A stretch of DNA of 39,893 nt, taken from the UHGV virus genome UHGV-1364246; one strand, written 5' to 3'. Origin of the DNA: a virus. Shown here one piece after another: positions 1-39,893 of the stretch. The position numbers were made by a program, and so were the translations under genes. The notes under the pieces are model-generated. The model did not search any database and was not told the origin of the DNA. It saw only the letters and a list, made by a program, of their open reading frames with translations. The number at the start of each line of letters is the position of its first letter. The stretch's first letter is position 1.

Positions 1-1019
1 GCGCCAGCCGCTTCAGGACGCAGACCACCATGACCCATAGCGTATTTACCAACAATCAGGTCGCCCTGAGCATCGACGTCACGGTCACGTTCCAGCGCCA
101 AGTCACGCAGCTTCACAGTACCCACAGCAGAACGGTGAGAGAACAGACCCACAACGTTGTCCATAGCAACTTTAACGTCGCCAGTAGCAGTTGCCGGGAA
201 TGCGTGTTTCTGACCGGAAGCAATAGTGATACCATCTTCACCACGAGTCTCACCAGCGCCACCTTGTACCAGATGCGGAACTTCAACAACAACGAAGCCC
301 ATCACGTTACGGATGTTACCAGTCTCTGGGTCAATCAGCGCAGCATAGTTAGCAGCGTTAGGCATCAGAGCAGCAAGGATTGCAGAGTAGTTGTCCGGCG
401 TGGTGTAGAAGTAACGGTCGCCAGCAGGAACGTAGTTGGAGGTCAGCTTCGCACGAGCAATGGTCAGTTGACCAATGATTGCTTCACCCAGTTTAGCTGG
501 GGTGTCGAGGTCAGCTTTCTTACCTACTTCAAGTACGGACGCAGTGCCCAGACCAGCAATGTTCTCGTTGGATGCAGCCGGGAGGTTACACAGGATAGCC
601 ATTTCAGCCAGAACCGCACCATCGGCAGCGATAGCCAGAGCTTCACCCAACTGGTTGGAATACTCGCCAGCCACGTCATAGTGGTTCATCGCGTCTTCAA
701 TGTCGAAAATCATCACATCGGCAGTCAGCAGACCATCAATGGTAATCACTTTCTCGGTATGTTTGATACCTTTACGTTTATCGGACAGTCGCTCACCCGG
801 AGCCAGATACACACCAGAGGTGCGACCCATGACCGGGAACTGAGCAGACTTACCGTTCTGAATGGTACGGACAATATGCTTGTCAGCAGTTACAGAGCGG
901 CGAGTGAATGCGGTCAGGACTTCACCAGCAAATACCTTCAGGAACAACGCCAGAGCGTCGGAACTGGATTTGCCTTTACCTTGGTCTGTACCAATTTTCT
1001 GACCCGGAACGTTTGCCAT
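1..1019 (-). CDS. Major capsid protein (gene 10A), N-terminal 339 codons; ORF runs off the window start and continues at 39893
   Basis: Minus-strand ATG at 1017-1019 with AGGAGA 8 nt upstream; translation MANVPGQKIGTDQGKGKSS...LFLKVFAGEVLTAF...KYAMGHGGLRPEAAGA closely matches recalled T7 gp10. Absent from the ORF track because no stop lies in this segment. Confidence 0.9.
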   Translation of the reverse strand, partial: MANVPGQKIGTDQGKGKSSSDALALFLKVFAGEVLTAFTRRSVTADKHIVRTIQNGKSAQFPVMGRTSGVYLAPGERLSDKRKGIKHTEKVITIDGLLTADVMIFDIEDAMNHYDVAGEYSNQLGEALAIAADGAVLAEMAILCNLPAASNENIAGLGTASVLEVGKKADLDTPAKLGEAIIGQLTIARAKLTSNYVPAGDRYFYTTPDNYSAILAALMPNAANYAALIDPETGNIRNVMGFVVVEVPHLVQGGAGETRGEDGITIASGQKHAFPATATGDVKVAMDNVVGLFSHRSAVGTVKLRDLALERDRDVDAQGDLIVGKYAMGHGGLRPEAAG

Positions 1020-1121
1020 ATGATAATTCTCCTATTCAATTGAAAGATAAAGTTTATTACTTGCTGTACGCCCAATCCGTATGGACTGAAGTAATAGGGA
1101 AACCTTGAGTCTGTCTCTTGG

Positions 1122-1144
1122 TCTCCCTATAGTGATAGTTTAGT
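1122..1144 (-). promoter_or_regulatory. Phage RNAP promoter upstream of capsid gene (phi10-like, late class, GGGAGA start)
   Basis: Minus-sense CTAAACTATCACTATAGGGAGA; predicted +1 at 1127. Confidence 0.8.
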
Positions 1145-3746: not shown

Positions 3747-4149
3747 CTACGTGCCTCCATGTTTTACCTGTTAATACGTCAGACAGCGTTCTCCTGGCTA
3801 CTCCCGGATATGCAGAGGTAAGCTCTGTCGCTGTTAGCCCTGACTTTCGTATGGACTTAACATCTTCGGTTGTTAGCTTGGAGTTGTAATGGCTGTCACT
3901 ATGTGGAGCGTTCTTTCTACCTTTGGAAACACAGTCTACCATGTTATCGCTATAAGTACCAACGCTCAGGTGTTCGGGATTGACGCATAGTCTATTGTCG
4001 CAGGAGTGCATCACCACTAGACCTTCTGGTATGGGACCTTTGTGTTTTAGGTAGGACACTACATGCGCTCCACGTAGCTTACCTGCATACCACTTCAGTC
4101 CATATCCAGCATTATTTACGCAGCCCTTATGCAGTATGCAGTCTGTCAT
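3739..4149 (-). CDS. HNH endonuclease (T7 gene 7.7 position)
   Basis: 136 aa; HKGPIPEGLVVMHSCDNRLCVNPEHL HNH motif. Confidence 0.7.
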   Translation of the reverse strand: MTDCILHKGCVNNAGYGLKWYAGKLRGAHVVSYLKHKGPIPEGLVVMHSCDNRLCVNPEHLSVGTYSDNMVDCVSKGRKNAPHSDSHYNSKLTTEDVKSIRKSGLTATELTSAYPGVARRTLSDVLTGKTWRHVDG

Positions 4150-4394
4150 ATAGAAATACCGCCACCAGAGGTGCGAGAGACCTGAAGGCTACGCTTACCG
4201 GAACGCTTCACTTTCTTCTCGTCAGATGCGGTCGATTCAGTATCCACATCCTCCACTTTGTCGTTCGGTACTTCCACTGGTGCTGCTGGGGTCTGAGCCT
4301 CAACAACCTTAGGCGCATCGTCAGAGCCAAGACCAACGGTCCCTAGCGTACTTTTCACCACTTTCTTGAAGGCCTTACTGATTGATTTACCCAC
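4146..4394 (-). CDS. Tail assembly / virion protein gp7.3-like
   Basis: 82 aa; MGKSISKAFKK...KRSLQVSRTSGGGISI resembles T7 gp7.3 at both ends. Confidence 0.7.
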   Translation of the reverse strand: MGKSISKAFKKVVKSTLGTVGLGSDDAPKVVEAQTPAAPVEVPNDKVEDVDTESTASDEKKVKRSGKRSLQVSRTSGGGISI

Positions 4395-14318: not shown

Positions 14319-14762
14319 TCACTCGGCAGCATAGCACTTACCTTTATGCAAGTCGAACAGCTCCTGATAGAAGGCTGCTTTGTTCAGGTCCTTCTCCATA
14401 GTAGCCAGCTCTGACTTCTTGCCAGCCCGGAGTCGATATTTAAGAACGTTACCCATGCAGAACCCACGGAACTCGCTGACAGTCATGGACCGAGCGATAA
14501 TCTCAATGGACTCAATGCCATCAAAGACCTGATAGTGCGACGGTTTACGGACGCTGTCTTCCTGACCTATTGTTGTCTGCTCGGTCTGCTCCTGATTGGT
14601 AATTTTTAAGGCACTAGAGGAGTGAATGACTGGTTCAGATAAACCGGGCCACTTAACAACAACTATGTGCCCCTTTCTAACCATAATCACCTTGCCACAG
14701 GAGAGTCCCATGTAGGCTATAATTAGTCCAACATATTTAACTGTATCCCCCACCTTAATCAT
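14319..14762 (-). CDS. gp1.7-position protein (possible nucleotide kinase homolog), function uncertain
   Basis: 147 aa; syntenic only; no motif confidently recognised. Confidence 0.35.
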   Translation of the reverse strand: MIKVGDTVKYVGLIIAYMGLSCGKVIMVRKGHIVVVKWPGLSEPVIHSSSALKITNQEQTEQTTIGQEDSVRKPSHYQVFDGIESIEIIARSMTVSEFRGFCMGNVLKYRLRAGKKSELATMEKDLNKAAFYQELFDLHKGKCYAAE

Positions 14763-36466: not shown

Positions 36467-36489
36467 AGTCCCTATAGTGATAGTTAAGG
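36467..36489 (-). promoter_or_regulatory. Phage RNAP promoter (phi13-like, GGGACT start)
   Basis: Minus-sense CTTAACTATCACTATAGGGACTATAGG; a partial duplicate of the core (CTATAGG) follows. Confidence 0.75.
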
Positions 36490-36513: not shown

Positions 36514-38871
36514 TTAGACGGAACGAGCTTTCTTAGCGTATGACGCCTCCCAGCCACAGCCAACGATGGACACTGGGGTAGGATAATCTGACTCTAAGGT
36601 TAGACTCGTGGTTAATGCGTTGCCATTCATAGCGAATCGATACTGACCATCCCCAATGTTGGTAGTCCCGATGGTTTGCTGACCTAGGGTGTACCCATTA
36701 AAGGTGTTCACGAACTCCCGCTCACCGTTTCTGACAATGAGTCTAAGAGCGCCAGTGTCCTTGTAGTTGACCCAAGCCCGACGAAGTTGTAGTCGTCCAG
36801 TGTCTTCAGACTGAGTGCCACTCTCGTCTTCAATCTTAATCAGGAACCGTGAGAACTTGTAGGACATCAGATAAGACCTTCCGATGAACACTGTGCGTCC
36901 TGACCAATCGCCGTTGAGAATAACCACAGTGGATATACTTGTTAAGTCACCAAGGTCCAAATAAGAACCCTGACTGTCAATCAAATAGTACCGGCCGGGA
37001 GACGGAGCGTTACCGCCATAAGCAGTACCGATGTCAACCGTAGTCTTATTGGTGTCAATATTAAACGAGCCAATTGGAATGACCATAGACACCTTGGAGT
37101 CAACGTGTAGTCTATACGGCTCTGACGGGAAGTCAGTGGCCTCCTTGATGAACTTAAGGTGCTCAATGTCCACACCTCCTTGGTGCTGACGGACGATGAA
37201 CATGGTAGAGCCAATGGAAGCAGATGCCAGAATCTTATCAGCTTTAGGGAACTCCCAGTGTGACCAAGAGGCTTGAAGCTGTACGCCGTCCTTAAACAAG
37301 AACTTGTAGATGTAGATACGGTTGTATGCACCTGTAGAGTTGACGCAGATGTAGTTCTCAGTCCCTGTACCTTGAATATCAAACACCCCGTTAGGGATGT
37401 AGGACAGTACGTGGCCAGTTGTATCATCGGCATCCTTCACATCAGACACATCAGCTACAGCGAAGTATCGCTTAATGCTGGTAAATGACCCACGAGGAGC
37501 TGAGAAGAAGACTGAGCGTCCTACAGCGAACGGTCTGGCATTGTCACCTAGGGCAAACTCTGAGCCAACATCAAGCTGGATAGACTTCGATGTAAGGACC
37601 CCAGAACTTGTCATCACGAACTGAACCTCATCCGACCAAAGTAGTAGCTGCTCGCTAAACGGAACGGCATACTTAAGGATTGAGATTCGAGGGTGACTTA
37701 CAGCTACATCAATAGGGTCATCATCACTCAGTGTCGCCACACTCTTAGGGAAGAACGAAAAGTAGCTGGCTGAACGGCTCATGATTACGTTCTCACCCGA
37801 CAAGAACCCGAGTCTGTTCCTGTAGAAGAACACATCATTAATCGTAGCATCCACGAAGCTAGGCATAGGGTTTGTGTCATCGTTACCAGCACCGCGCTTG
37901 GACCAATCCAGAGTCTTGAACTCAAAGGATCCATCAAACTTCCTGACCAGAGCATGTGGCATTGTGGTGACATCGAACCCAGTGACCACTCCCGGCTCTA
38001 CTGTCTCCTTCCACGTCTTAGTATTGGAGTCATACATCACGTAATATTCATCGGCGCTACTGTTGGTCTCACCTTGAATCTTAATGATGTACCCATTTGG
38101 AGCCGCAAGAGGCAACTTAGAGATTGTTTGCACCGTGTCGAGGACTGGGCTGATTAGCTGGTTAGCGTAGCCATCCTCCGTCTCCACTGAGTTAATGTCA
38201 GTCCCTGAAGGGGCAGTGATTAACAGGAATCCAGACCCAAGGTCGAACGTGAAGGTAGGGTAAGCAGCAACAAGAAGGTCTCTCAGAGCTGCACCGATAG
38301 CCTGAGCATCAACCTTAGGAGGGTCATTCTCGGCATCATTACCTGCTGGCAACTTATGCGAAACCTTAACGCCTCCATTGATTCCTACCTTAAGGGTGCG
38401 ACCATACTGTCCACCACGCAGGTTAATTAAAGCACGAGCTTTACGATTATAACCAGAGTGTGACTTCTCGCTTCCGCCTTTAACGACAACCTTACGGTTC
38501 ACGATGAACGTATAGTCTGCAACGGTAACGACACGGATGTCATCTCGCGGGTTGGACGACTTAACGTAATCTACCGCACCGGAAACTGAGTATTGATTAC
38601 CACTCAAGTCAACTACCTGAATGTTGGACCCGTTGAACACGATGTAATACTGCTCCTGCTCATCACGGTTAATCAGGTGGAACTTAGGGTTGCTCCCAAC
38701 GTCGATGTTAAGACGTCGCTTGAAGACTGTAGGCGGGCGCTTCTGGAGTCCATCACTCTCTGAGGACCAGCAGTTAACTTGCTCCTCGCCTTGGTCTGAG
38801 AACCTCAGTATGTCTGGCTGCTGGCTAATACCACCTTTAAGGTTCTTGATTGATTGAGTAATTAGTGGCAT
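36514..38871 (-). CDS. Tail tubular protein B (gp12-like)
   Basis: 785 aa; syntenic; size close to T7 gp12. Confidence 0.85.
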   Translation of the reverse strand: MPLITQSIKNLKGGISQQPDILRFSDQGEEQVNCWSSESDGLQKRPPTVFKRRLNIDVGSNPKFHLINRDEQEQYYIVFNGSNIQVVDLSGNQYSVSGAVDYVKSSNPRDDIRVVTVADYTFIVNRKVVVKGGSEKSHSGYNRKARALINLRGGQYGRTLKVGINGGVKVSHKLPAGNDAENDPPKVDAQAIGAALRDLLVAAYPTFTFDLGSGFLLITAPSGTDINSVETEDGYANQLISPVLDTVQTISKLPLAAPNGYIIKIQGETNSSADEYYVMYDSNTKTWKETVEPGVVTGFDVTTMPHALVRKFDGSFEFKTLDWSKRGAGNDDTNPMPSFVDATINDVFFYRNRLGFLSGENVIMSRSASYFSFFPKSVATLSDDDPIDVAVSHPRISILKYAVPFSEQLLLWSDEVQFVMTSSGVLTSKSIQLDVGSEFALGDNARPFAVGRSVFFSAPRGSFTSIKRYFAVADVSDVKDADDTTGHVLSYIPNGVFDIQGTGTENYICVNSTGAYNRIYIYKFLFKDGVQLQASWSHWEFPKADKILASASIGSTMFIVRQHQGGVDIEHLKFIKEATDFPSEPYRLHVDSKVSMVIPIGSFNIDTNKTTVDIGTAYGGNAPSPGRYYLIDSQGSYLDLGDLTSISTVVILNGDWSGRTVFIGRSYLMSYKFSRFLIKIEDESGTQSEDTGRLQLRRAWVNYKDTGALRLIVRNGEREFVNTFNGYTLGQQTIGTTNIGDGQYRFAMNGNALTTSLTLESDYPTPVSIVGCGWEASYAKKARSV

Positions 38872-38880
38872 AGGCCCTCC

Positions 38881-39108
38881 TTAAATCATACTCATTAGGA
38901 CATATCCCTCAGCGATGTCACCAACGTCAGCAATGTGGACAACCTTACGTGCTACCTGTTGTCCAGTATACCCGTTGTCCCACTCATTCAGGATAAGCCA
39001 GTCGCCAACCTTAAAGTCCCGGTCGTTAAGTCTCAGCTCTGCTGTCTTTAGACCTAGTTGTACCGGACCAAAGTGCTGGCGGTGAATCTTCAGGTTGTGA
39101 CTAGCCAT
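38881..39108 (-). CDS. Small PUA/ASCH-like protein (DUF3850-like) inserted between tail tube A and B genes
   Basis: 75 aa; HNLKIHRQHFGPVQLGLKTAELRLNDRDFKVGDWLILNEW resembles the DUF3850 pattern; ATG overlaps the gp11 stop (TAATG) with GGGAGGGA upstream. Confidence 0.55.
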   Translation of the reverse strand: MASHNLKIHRQHFGPVQLGLKTAELRLNDRDFKVGDWLILNEWDNGYTGQQVARKVVHIADVGDIAEGYVLMSMI

Positions 39109-39674
39109 TAGTCCCTCCCGATGTCGGACATCATGTTGTAGCGACCAGTGTCCATCTCGTATTCCATGACCTGCTGATAGAGTTCTGCTTCCTGCTCACG
39201 AAGGTATAGCTCTGACTCTGGGCTACCGAAGAACTTAGCGTTGAACTCACGGCTTGCCTTGGTAACGATGTAGTCCCTGAATACCACAGGCATCTCAGAG
39301 AACGGTTTCATCTCAACAAGCTCTACCGTTATAGGGTCGGTGAAAGTGGTTGACTGAGTGGACAGGTCGTACAGGTATCCACCCATGTTGCTGTAGTAGC
39401 TGGTGGCCCCGGCAGTCATTACACGAAGGTATGACGGCAGGAATCGAATCCTGTTGTCTTGGACATCAGGTGTCAGGACAGCAGCTTCATTAATGTTAAA
39501 GTTCCATCCTTTAGCTTGGACCTGACGATTGACACGATGCAGGATACGTTGAGCGTTCGAGACATCAGCGTTGCCCTCATCAAGCTGTAGGACTGCTGGT
39601 TCACCGATAGCAGCTAACATATCGTTGATGGCATCTAAGTCATCGTTAGCATTCAGTGGAATGTATTGAGCCAT
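39108..39674 (-). CDS. Tail tubular protein A (gp11-like)
   Basis: 188 aa; LAAIGEPAV...NAQRILHRVNRQVQAKGWNFNI...FRDYIVTKASREFNAKFFGSPE...MEYEMDTGRYNM matches recalled T7 gp11. Confidence 0.9.
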   Translation of the reverse strand: MAQYIPLNANDDLDAINDMLAAIGEPAVLQLDEGNADVSNAQRILHRVNRQVQAKGWNFNINEAAVLTPDVQDNRIRFLPSYLRVMTAGATSYYSNMGGYLYDLSTQSTTFTDPITVELVEMKPFSEMPVVFRDYIVTKASREFNAKFFGSPESELYLREQEAELYQQVMEYEMDTGRYNMMSDIGRD

Positions 39675-39692: not shown

Positions 39693-39735
39693 AGCAAAAA
39701 ACCCCTCAAGCACCCGAAGGCACCCAAGGGGTTTC
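39693..39735 (-). terminator. Tphi-like late terminator between capsid and tail tube A genes
   Basis: Minus-sense CCCCUUGGGUGCC-UUCG-GGUGCUUGAGGGG hairpin followed by UUUUUUG; same position and form as T7 Tphi. Confidence 0.8.
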
Positions 39736-39737
39736 AA

Positions 39738-39890
39738 TTAGTTGTTGGACTCAGCCAGTTTAGCGGCCCTGTTCGCAGCACGAGTACGCGCAGCTTTCTG
39801 TTGAGGAGTTAGAGTCTCCTCTTCAGGTGCAGCCGCTACTGTAGCGACGTTAGGTTGGCTAAAGGTGCTTACGCCGCTGGGCTGAAAACC
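39738..39890 (-). CDS. Minor capsid protein 10B C-terminal extension, reached by -1 ribosomal frameshift at GGTTTTC
   Basis: Slippery heptamer G GTT TTC at 39884-39890 (minus sense). The -1 frame reads FQPSGVSTFSQPNVATVAAAPEEETLTPQQKAARTRAANRAAKLAESNN-stop (stop 39738-39740), resembling the recalled T7 10B tail. Confidence 0.6.
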   Translation of the reverse strand, partial: GFQPSGVSTFSQPNVATVAAAPEEETLTPQQKAARTRAANRAAKLAESNN

Positions 39891-39893
39891 AGT
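39869..39893 (-). CDS. Major capsid protein 10A, C-terminal 8 codons plus stop (continuation of 1..1019 across the circular junction)
   Basis: Joining position 1 to 39893 keeps the frame: ...EAAGA-A-LVFSPAA-TAA, stop at 39869-39871; total about 347 aa, close to T7 10A. Confidence 0.6.

Follow-up and report, generated by a model that had tools for sequence, protein, structure and literature searches.

DUF3850 proteins are described as PUA-like, and no functional assay of any member was found in the literature searched. A structure obtained by structural genomics, 3IUW, represents an 83-aa protein of Enterococcus faecalis V583 (NP_814290, 'activating signal cointegrator') that differs from the protein considered here in its bacterial, probably prophage, origin and in its genomic setting. 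In prophages, the same phage-enriched domain is often part of ParB-CTPase-DUF3850 fusions, which are multidomain, CTP-binding and ParA-linked (PMC12704722). Enzymatic activities have been described for ASCH proteins. In Escherichia coli YqfB (9KYF/9KYH), an N4-acetylcytidine amidohydrolase, Lys21, Thr24 and Arg26 together with Glu74 catalyse the hydrolysis of N4-acetylcytidine (PMC9599836). Nineteen ASCH proteins of the Thr and Glu types were reported to remove ac4C from tRNA, the Lys and Glu of the conserved octapeptide being essential for removal; the set tested comprised neither phage nor DUF3850 proteins (bioRxiv 10.64898/2026.02.27.708502). An earlier study, as cited in that preprint (bioRxiv 10.64898/2026.02.27.708502), had found ASCH proteins of the Glu type to be inactive on free ac4C. 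TthASCH (2DP9), EOLA1 and the ASCH domain of TRIP4 are Glu-type ('GKER') proteins reported as tRNA ac4C erasers; with 120-160 residues and extra helices, as opposed to the 75 residues of the DUF3850 core, Glu-type proteins resemble the latter at the profile level only.

The gene that concerns us here is already known: the same protein at the same junction is annotated in many GenBank records of Kayfunavirus, the first being EcoDS1. The EcoDS1 protein (YP_002003774, 'RNA-binding protein') is 100% identical to ours and its gene occupies the same junction, with the same overlap (TAATG) between its start codon and the stop codon of gene 11. ORF40 of Enterobacter phage B1 is again the same gene at the same 11/12 junction with the same TAATG overlap, while gene 11.05 of Citrobacter phage CR44b shares the junction and the TAATG but is only 45% identical and lacks the family-conserved residues K7, D29 and R30. 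Apart from the name 11.05 in CR44b, existing annotations read hypothetical, 'RNA-binding protein', 'DUF3850 domain-containing protein' or 'activating signal cointegrator'. The present locus therefore holds no new sequence feature, as the identical protein and the identical junction are found in deposited genomes. What is added here is that the gene, as judged from comparative data, is dispensable yet under purifying selection, that it is lineage-specific, that its ribosome site is embedded in gene 11 and that the K1F clade has precisely lost 237 bp.

The window, that is, the whole 39,893-nt stretch of DNA analysed (UHGV-1364246), is a complete Kayfunavirus genome (a K1F/EcoDS1-like coliphage, Studiervirinae), circularly permuted and reverse-complemented. 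In an 801-nt region, it shares 97.9% identity with Kayfunavirus BDX03P1 and 96.8% with EcoDS1. Gene 10, which encodes the 347-aa major capsid protein on the minus strand, is continuous across the ends of the sequence (1-1043 and 39740-39893); a plus-strand ORF antisense to it (30..1043, 337 aa) is probably spurious. The features referred to below are:

39108..39674, minus strand: gene 11, tail tubular protein A, 188 aa (PHROG 446 tail protein, E=8e-68)
39113..39119, minus strand: ribosome site of the ORF, GGGAGGG, in the last Gly-Arg codons of gene 11 (GGG AGG)
38881..39108, minus strand: DUF3850/ASCH-superfamily ORF, 75 aa, ATG start, stop codon included
38876..38882, minus strand: ribosome site of gene 12, AAGGAGG, overlapping the TAA of the ORF
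38872..39108, minus strand: 237-bp cassette (ORF plus gene 12 ribosome site), precisely missing in K1F-type genomes
36514..38871, minus strand: gene 12, tail tubular protein B / nozzle, 785 aa (PHROG 457, E=2e-281)
39703-39720, minus strand: Tphi-like intrinsic terminator between gene 10 and gene 11, same position as in the EcoDS1 annotation
36469-36487, minus strand: phi13-type phage RNA polymerase promoter, the next promoter downstream (EcoDS1 phi13 sequence match)
1124-1142, minus strand: phi10 promoter (phage-promoter match)
14319-14762, minus strand: gp1.7-like nucleotide kinase, 147 aa (PHROG 4943/2585)

A previous sequence-only reading had proposed that a 75-aa ORF at 38881-39108 is translationally coupled to both of its neighbours. 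The ORF was confirmed on the minus strand with an ATG start, and its overlap with the gene 11 stop codon is real, the gene 11 TAA (39110-39108) and the ORF ATG (39108-39106) having one base in common. This one-base overlap, together with the presence of a ribosome site inside the end of gene 11, 5 nt away from the ATG, fits translational coupling. At its other end, the ORF terminates with a TAA (38883-38881), followed by the 9-nt spacer GGAGGGCCT and by the gene 12 ATG at 38871. The gene 12 ribosome site had been located in the last codons of the ORF; it does overlap the ORF, but at the stop codon rather than at the last sense codons. As that reading also stated, gene 12 directly follows gene 11 in T7; the gap between the two measures 23 nt and contains no ORF. 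All 16 DUF3850-bearing loci preserve the TAATG overlap. The final Gly-Arg of gene 11 is encoded by GGG AGG/AGA in all 16 of these loci and in the two K1F-type loci, and by GGT CGA in nine loci where gene 12 has a spacer and a ribosome site of its own. Synonymous codon choice at the end of gene 11 (39111-39119) tracks whether an ATG overlaps the gene 11 stop, a pattern that selection for translation of the downstream ORF would be expected to produce.

Searching the genome with the EcoDS1 phi13 sequence (pattern T[T/A]AACTATCAC-TATAGG[G/A]) yielded nine phage-polymerase promoter matches versus none expected by chance, all on the minus strand (at 1124, 2162, 5371, 11679, 17088, 20152, 23550, 29193 and 36469). 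No match was found between phi10 and phi13 and no sigma-70-like site was seen near the ORF, which led us to reject a promoter of its own. Being located downstream of the Tphi-like terminator and having no such promoter, the ORF would share the read-through transcript of genes 11 and 12. The expectation that it is expressed at late-gene levels thus holds as far as co-transcription with late genes 11 and 12 is concerned, but not at the level of the capsid gene, the RNA being the one that reads through Tphi.

The resemblance of the protein to the DUF3850 family proved far above chance. In an HMM search, residues 4-73 matched positions 2-76 of the 77 in Pfam PF12961 (DUF3850; E=1.9e-19, 70.1 bits versus a cut-off of 22.9). 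The ASCH profile PF04266, which belongs to the PUA-like clan, also scored above threshold (26.2 bits, cut-off 21.2), and PHROG 986 ('RNA-binding protein') matched with E=3e-35. DUF3850 and ASCH were the only domains found, with no nuclease domain (HNH, GIY-YIG, Endonuclease VII or similar), and a search of NCBIfam profiles gave no match. Among solved structures, 3IUW alone shows significant sequence similarity, with E=1e-10 in a single-sequence search and E=3e-25 in a profile search. An AlphaFold model of the protein, built with 31 homologues (pLDDT 94), matches this solved DUF3850 member and predicts a PUA-like beta-barrel, so that the PUA/ASCH fold suggested earlier is borne out by both profile and model. 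The matches obtained in a BFVD fold search are uncharacterised viral DUF3850/ASCH proteins only.

Alignment with 39 homologues, mostly 40-58% identical to the ORF protein, revealed four invariant residues (H4, K21, R26 and E42) and nine that are at least 90% conserved (K7, E24, D29, R30, G35, D36, L40, G49 and S73), and the ORF protein retains all 13. Residues H4, K7, K21, E24, R26, D29, R30, G35, D36, E42, G49 and S73 are conserved also in 80 multidomain members of the family. That so many positions, mostly charged, are conserved in a 75-residue barrel would indicate a ligand pocket or an active site. The ASCH octapeptide G-x-K-x-x-[E/T/S]-x-R is present as G19-L-K21-T-A-E24-L-R26 and aligns to GRKTITIR of YqfB and to GKKRIEVR of PF0469. 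Domain partners were uninformative as a functional clue: DUF551 is present in nine of the 80 multidomain homologues and a dATP/dGTP pyrophosphohydrolase domain in one, the others having no Pfam partner. Unlike the ParB-CTPase-DUF3850 fusions, the ORF protein is a bare domain with no partner.

A homology search returned 5,324 cluster representatives. In other phages, DUF3850 genes lie among small early or accessory ORFs and not among structural genes: between the lysis genes and terminase in Kagunavirus, near polynucleotide kinase in T1-like phages, just after replication gene A in a P2-like phage and near the single-stranded DNA-binding protein gene in a Listeria phage. The gene itself was found by protein search in 561 phage records, about 155 of them at at least 80% identity; in the records that were inspected, it adjoins the gene for tail tubular protein A. 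There are 218 records with a gp11 at least 80% identical to that of the studied genome, and of 209 nucleotide matches 156 cover the junction in full, from which we infer that about three quarters of the Kayfunavirus genomes in GenBank carry the gene. Two records bear unexpected host names: Enterococcus phage EFA-1 (MT350292.1) encodes a 100% identical DUF3850 protein, and Acinetobacter phage vB_Aba_01KA (PV615262.1) matches the junction at 96.5% nucleotide identity. Because both carry Kayfunavirus tail genes, mislabelled hosts or contaminated samples are the probable explanation.

Twenty-seven loci were surveyed along with the studied genome, and several states of the junction were distinguished. 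The studied genome exemplifies the first, in which the cassette accompanies a type-I gp12. The second comprises cassette alleles at 85% (GA2A-like) or 68-69% identity, found beside a gp12 that is 70-75% identical while gp11 is 92-100% identical. The third is the 45% allele of CR44b. In the fourth, represented by K1F and a ZG49-like genome, the cassette is precisely absent; in the fifth (SH3, SH4, GW1, IMM-002, CR8 and relatives) it is absent and an 11-13-nt spacer is found. Metagenomic homologues at 68-69% identity show the same junction and the same overlap. No ORF separates gp11 from gp12 in 41 T7-like loci outside Kayfunavirus, where the gap ranges from -4 to 53 nt; the view that the gene is inserted where T7 has nothing thus extends to these 41 loci as well. 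Conservation in related phages, on which the sequence-only reading had made its proposal depend, was found at the junction, identity falling as low as 45%. In a neighbour-joining tree, the core Kayfunavirus alleles are monophyletic (bootstrap 0.945), and the CR44b type joins them weakly (0.33); independent insertions of unrelated DUF3850 genes at the junction are not favoured on this basis. A recent foreign acquisition was rejected, the GC content (0.489) and GC3 being equal to those of the flanks. The simplest history, which we favour as the likely but unproven one, would be that the lineage acquired the gene once, long ago, and that the gene then diverged along with the gp12 module and was lost repeatedly. 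The CR44b allele (positions 4067-4291 of locus L028) stands apart: E24 is replaced by D, the score against DUF3850 falls to 26.6 bits and dN/dS is 0.29, denoting faster evolution, while its database model keeps the fold (TM 0.93). This allele may be decaying or changing function.

The K1F junction is of particular use in this context. In K1F and the ZG49-like contig, gp11 is 100% and gp12 97% identical to those of the studied genome and exactly 237 bp are absent, from the ORF ATG to the gene 12 ATG, so that K1F gene 11 runs through TAATG directly into gene 12. An imperfect direct repeat, GGAGGGaCTaATG / GGAGGGcCT-ATG, flanks the cassette. K1F retains the codons GGG AGG, elsewhere found together with the cassette, suggesting not an ancestral absence but a secondary loss in which the two copies of ribosome site plus ATG recombined. 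Since K1F lacks the gene, as do 11 other Kayfunavirus loci, the genome comparison argues that it is dispensable within Kayfunavirus.

Dispensability does not imply lack of selection. Pairwise dN/dS values (Nei-Gojobori) between the ORF and the 85%, 69% and 68% alleles are 0.10-0.17, synonymous sites being near saturation in this comparison, and those of gp12 are 0.12-0.14. By this measure the ORF is a real gene under purifying selection comparable to that on gp12. In 12 loci of the same type as the studied genome, the cassette has a third-position diversity of 0.069, as against 0.153 for gene 11 and about 0.16 for gene 12. The flanks contain 825 contiguous 75-codon windows, of which none is as low as the cassette, and 19 of its 75 third positions segregate versus 455 of 973 in the flanks (Fisher p=3e-4). 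The low diversity is what a cassette of more recent common ancestry would show and suggests that it may have spread by recombination within the genus. A conserved RNA structure was considered and rejected: there was no Rfam match and the RNAalifold covariation term (+0.33 for nine alleles) gave no support; the single-sequence fold of the cassette has z=-2.48. In Hafnia phage vB_HpaA_yong1, a 146-aa Endonuclease_7 gene (Pfam E=3e-20; positions 1748-2188 of locus L036) lies between the DUF3850 gene and gene 12, overlapping the start of the latter, and a 158-aa hypothetical ORF, ORF41, is found at the same position in Enterobacter phage B1 (PMC12785254). Within the genus, the junction of genes 11 and 12 is a hotspot for insertions.

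Taken together, these comparative data show that the ORF is a real gene of the DUF3850 family with the corresponding fold, under selection, dispensable and restricted to this lineage. We consider it rather probable that it is translated, that its role is accessory and non-structural, and that its product, a minimal single-domain DUF3850/ASCH protein, acts through a nucleobase pocket. The ORF would be transcribed, with genes 11 and 12, on RNA that reads through Tphi and would be translated by coupling, from an ATG placed on the gene 11 stop and a ribosome site made of synonymous positions in gene 11; the cassette would also provide the ribosome site for gene 12. Pocket residues K21, E24 and R26, along with H4, K7, D29, R30 and E42, would bind a nucleobase, either free or flipped out and probably modified. 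By analogy with ASCH proteins, the octapeptide in its G-x-K-x-x-E-x-R form suggests that a modified nucleobase is bound or N4-deacylated; the likeness to the Glu-type ('GKER') proteins in particular raises the possibility of N4-acyl hydrolysis, for example of ac4C on tRNA or nucleotides. As 19 ASCH proteins of the Thr and Glu types were reported as ac4C erasers, N4-deacylation, or at least recognition of a modified cytosine, would be the most concrete hypothesis. The term 'nucleic-acid-binding', for its part, is inherited from annotation and is best regarded as putative. Any benefit would be conditional and concern the manipulation of host RNA or nucleotides rather than the building of virions. 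Against this explanation, it must be said that a late-expressed tRNA or nucleotide deacylase offers no obvious benefit to a T7-like phage. Comparing the gene content of 24 Kayfunavirus genomes, 13 with the gene and 11 without, disclosed no clean partner. A gp1.7-like nucleotide kinase allele is present in 12 of the 13 and in 3 of the 11 (uncorrected p=0.002, confounded by phylogeny), and an HNH ORF in 9 of the 13 and 1 of the 11 (likewise uncorrected and confounded by phylogeny). The co-occurrence with the kinase allele fits a nucleotide-salvage theme.

The position of the gene between two tail-tube genes, and its coupling to both, could be explained if the protein were a tail assembly factor or a minor virion component, the more so as gene order in T7-like phages usually follows function. 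A structural protein would be present wherever the same gp11 and gp12 tail is built. It is missing from the K1F-type phages, whose gp11 is identical and whose gp12 is 97% identical, and from ten further Kayfunavirus loci, and none of the 41 other T7-like loci has any ORF at the junction. As functional phages assemble this tail in its absence, the protein can be neither an essential structural component nor an essential assembly factor; given that K1F dispenses with the gene, packaging of the protein in the virion is not expected either. Family members elsewhere reside in non-structural regions of phage genomes and the fold is that of a nucleobase-binding PUA-like barrel. The ORF40 homologue is not among the proteins that band-based mass spectrometry reported from B1 virions, a weak point as eight bands only were analysed (PMC12785254). 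On these comparative grounds, a structural role appears already hard to hold and we regard it as highly improbable. The hotspot, the low synonymous diversity of the cassette and its repeated loss within the genus would also be accounted for by a selfish or hitch-hiking element of no benefit to the phage, tolerated at the junction and spread by recombination, possibly with the help of neighbouring homing endonucleases. Such an element would hardly be expected to show purifying selection at the protein level (dN/dS 0.10-0.17) across alleles saturated at synonymous sites, nor to keep the charged residues conserved throughout the family; the cassette has no nuclease or mobility domain of its own and its GC content equals that of its flanks. 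Hitch-hiking is thus an unlikely explanation.

The two remaining alternatives assign the protein a specific target. It could be a YqfB-type nucleoside amidohydrolase that salvages pyrimidines while phage DNA and RNA are synthesised, by turning free N4-acetylcytidine into cytidine. K21 and R26 of the octapeptide do align with those of YqfB, and the co-occurrence with the gp1.7-like kinase allele (12/13 versus 3/11, uncorrected p=0.002) lends this idea some weak encouragement. Yet Thr24, which forms part of the GKTR motif, is replaced by Glu24, the protein is shorter by some 30 residues and shows no significant sequence similarity (E=0.4-0.6), and no residue matching the general acid Glu74 was identified in it. 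Furthermore, the free ac4C pool in E. coli is small. The change from Thr to Glu and the want of a counterpart to the Glu74 region argue that the protein is not a YqfB-type enzyme, an identification that we find decidedly unlikely. Alternatively, the free-standing PUA/ASCH-like pocket might bind or destroy a modified nucleotide or base that host immunity reads as a danger signal, or keep modified nucleic acid from being recognised by a PUA-type sensor. The degradation of host DNA by T7-like phages (T7 genes 3 and 6) fits the release of m6dAMP, one example of such a signal. [quoted passage not shown] In keeping with a countermeasure of this kind, the DUF3850 gene is small, is widespread in unrelated phage families and usually sits among accessory ORFs; its presence/absence polymorphism and its several deep alleles within one genus are typical of anti-defence genes, and a synonymous diversity less than half that of the flanks is consistent with recent recombinational spread. 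On the other hand, no sequence or experimental link between DUF3850 and the Metis or PUA-Cal-HAD sensors is known, neither of the two sensor preprints reports a phage-encoded inhibitor (bioRxiv 10.1101/2025.11.05.686725; 10.64898/2026.01.15.699771), PADLOC returned no meaningful match (best E=0.007, 14 bits) and the gene is co-transcribed with late tail genes, most anti-defence genes being early. A role as a countermeasure is accordingly given a small chance. In its fullest form, held to be no likelier and resting on analogy, a bare DUF3850 protein might sequester or destroy methylated or acylated mononucleotides such as m6dAMP, or else erase ac4C from host tRNA-Met late in infection; it can be speculated that the latter activity would retune translation at that stage.

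Whichever target the putative nucleobase pocket may have, the locus lends itself to experiment. With its 75 residues and a homologue of solved structure, the protein provides a tractable handle on DUF3850, and concrete assays can be taken from studies of ASCH ac4C erasers and of PUA-type sensors that detect methylated mononucleotides. Natural near-isogenic pairs, equivalent to knock-outs, are available in phages whose flanking gp11 and gp12 are 97-100% identical and which differ by the presence or absence of the 237 bp. The junction is also a clean example of a ribosome site that occupies synonymous positions of an upstream structural gene and serves an inserted ORF. Should the countermeasure reading turn out to be true, it would assign a first function to a domain that is spread over more than 5,000 protein clusters (50% identity), many of which are from phages.
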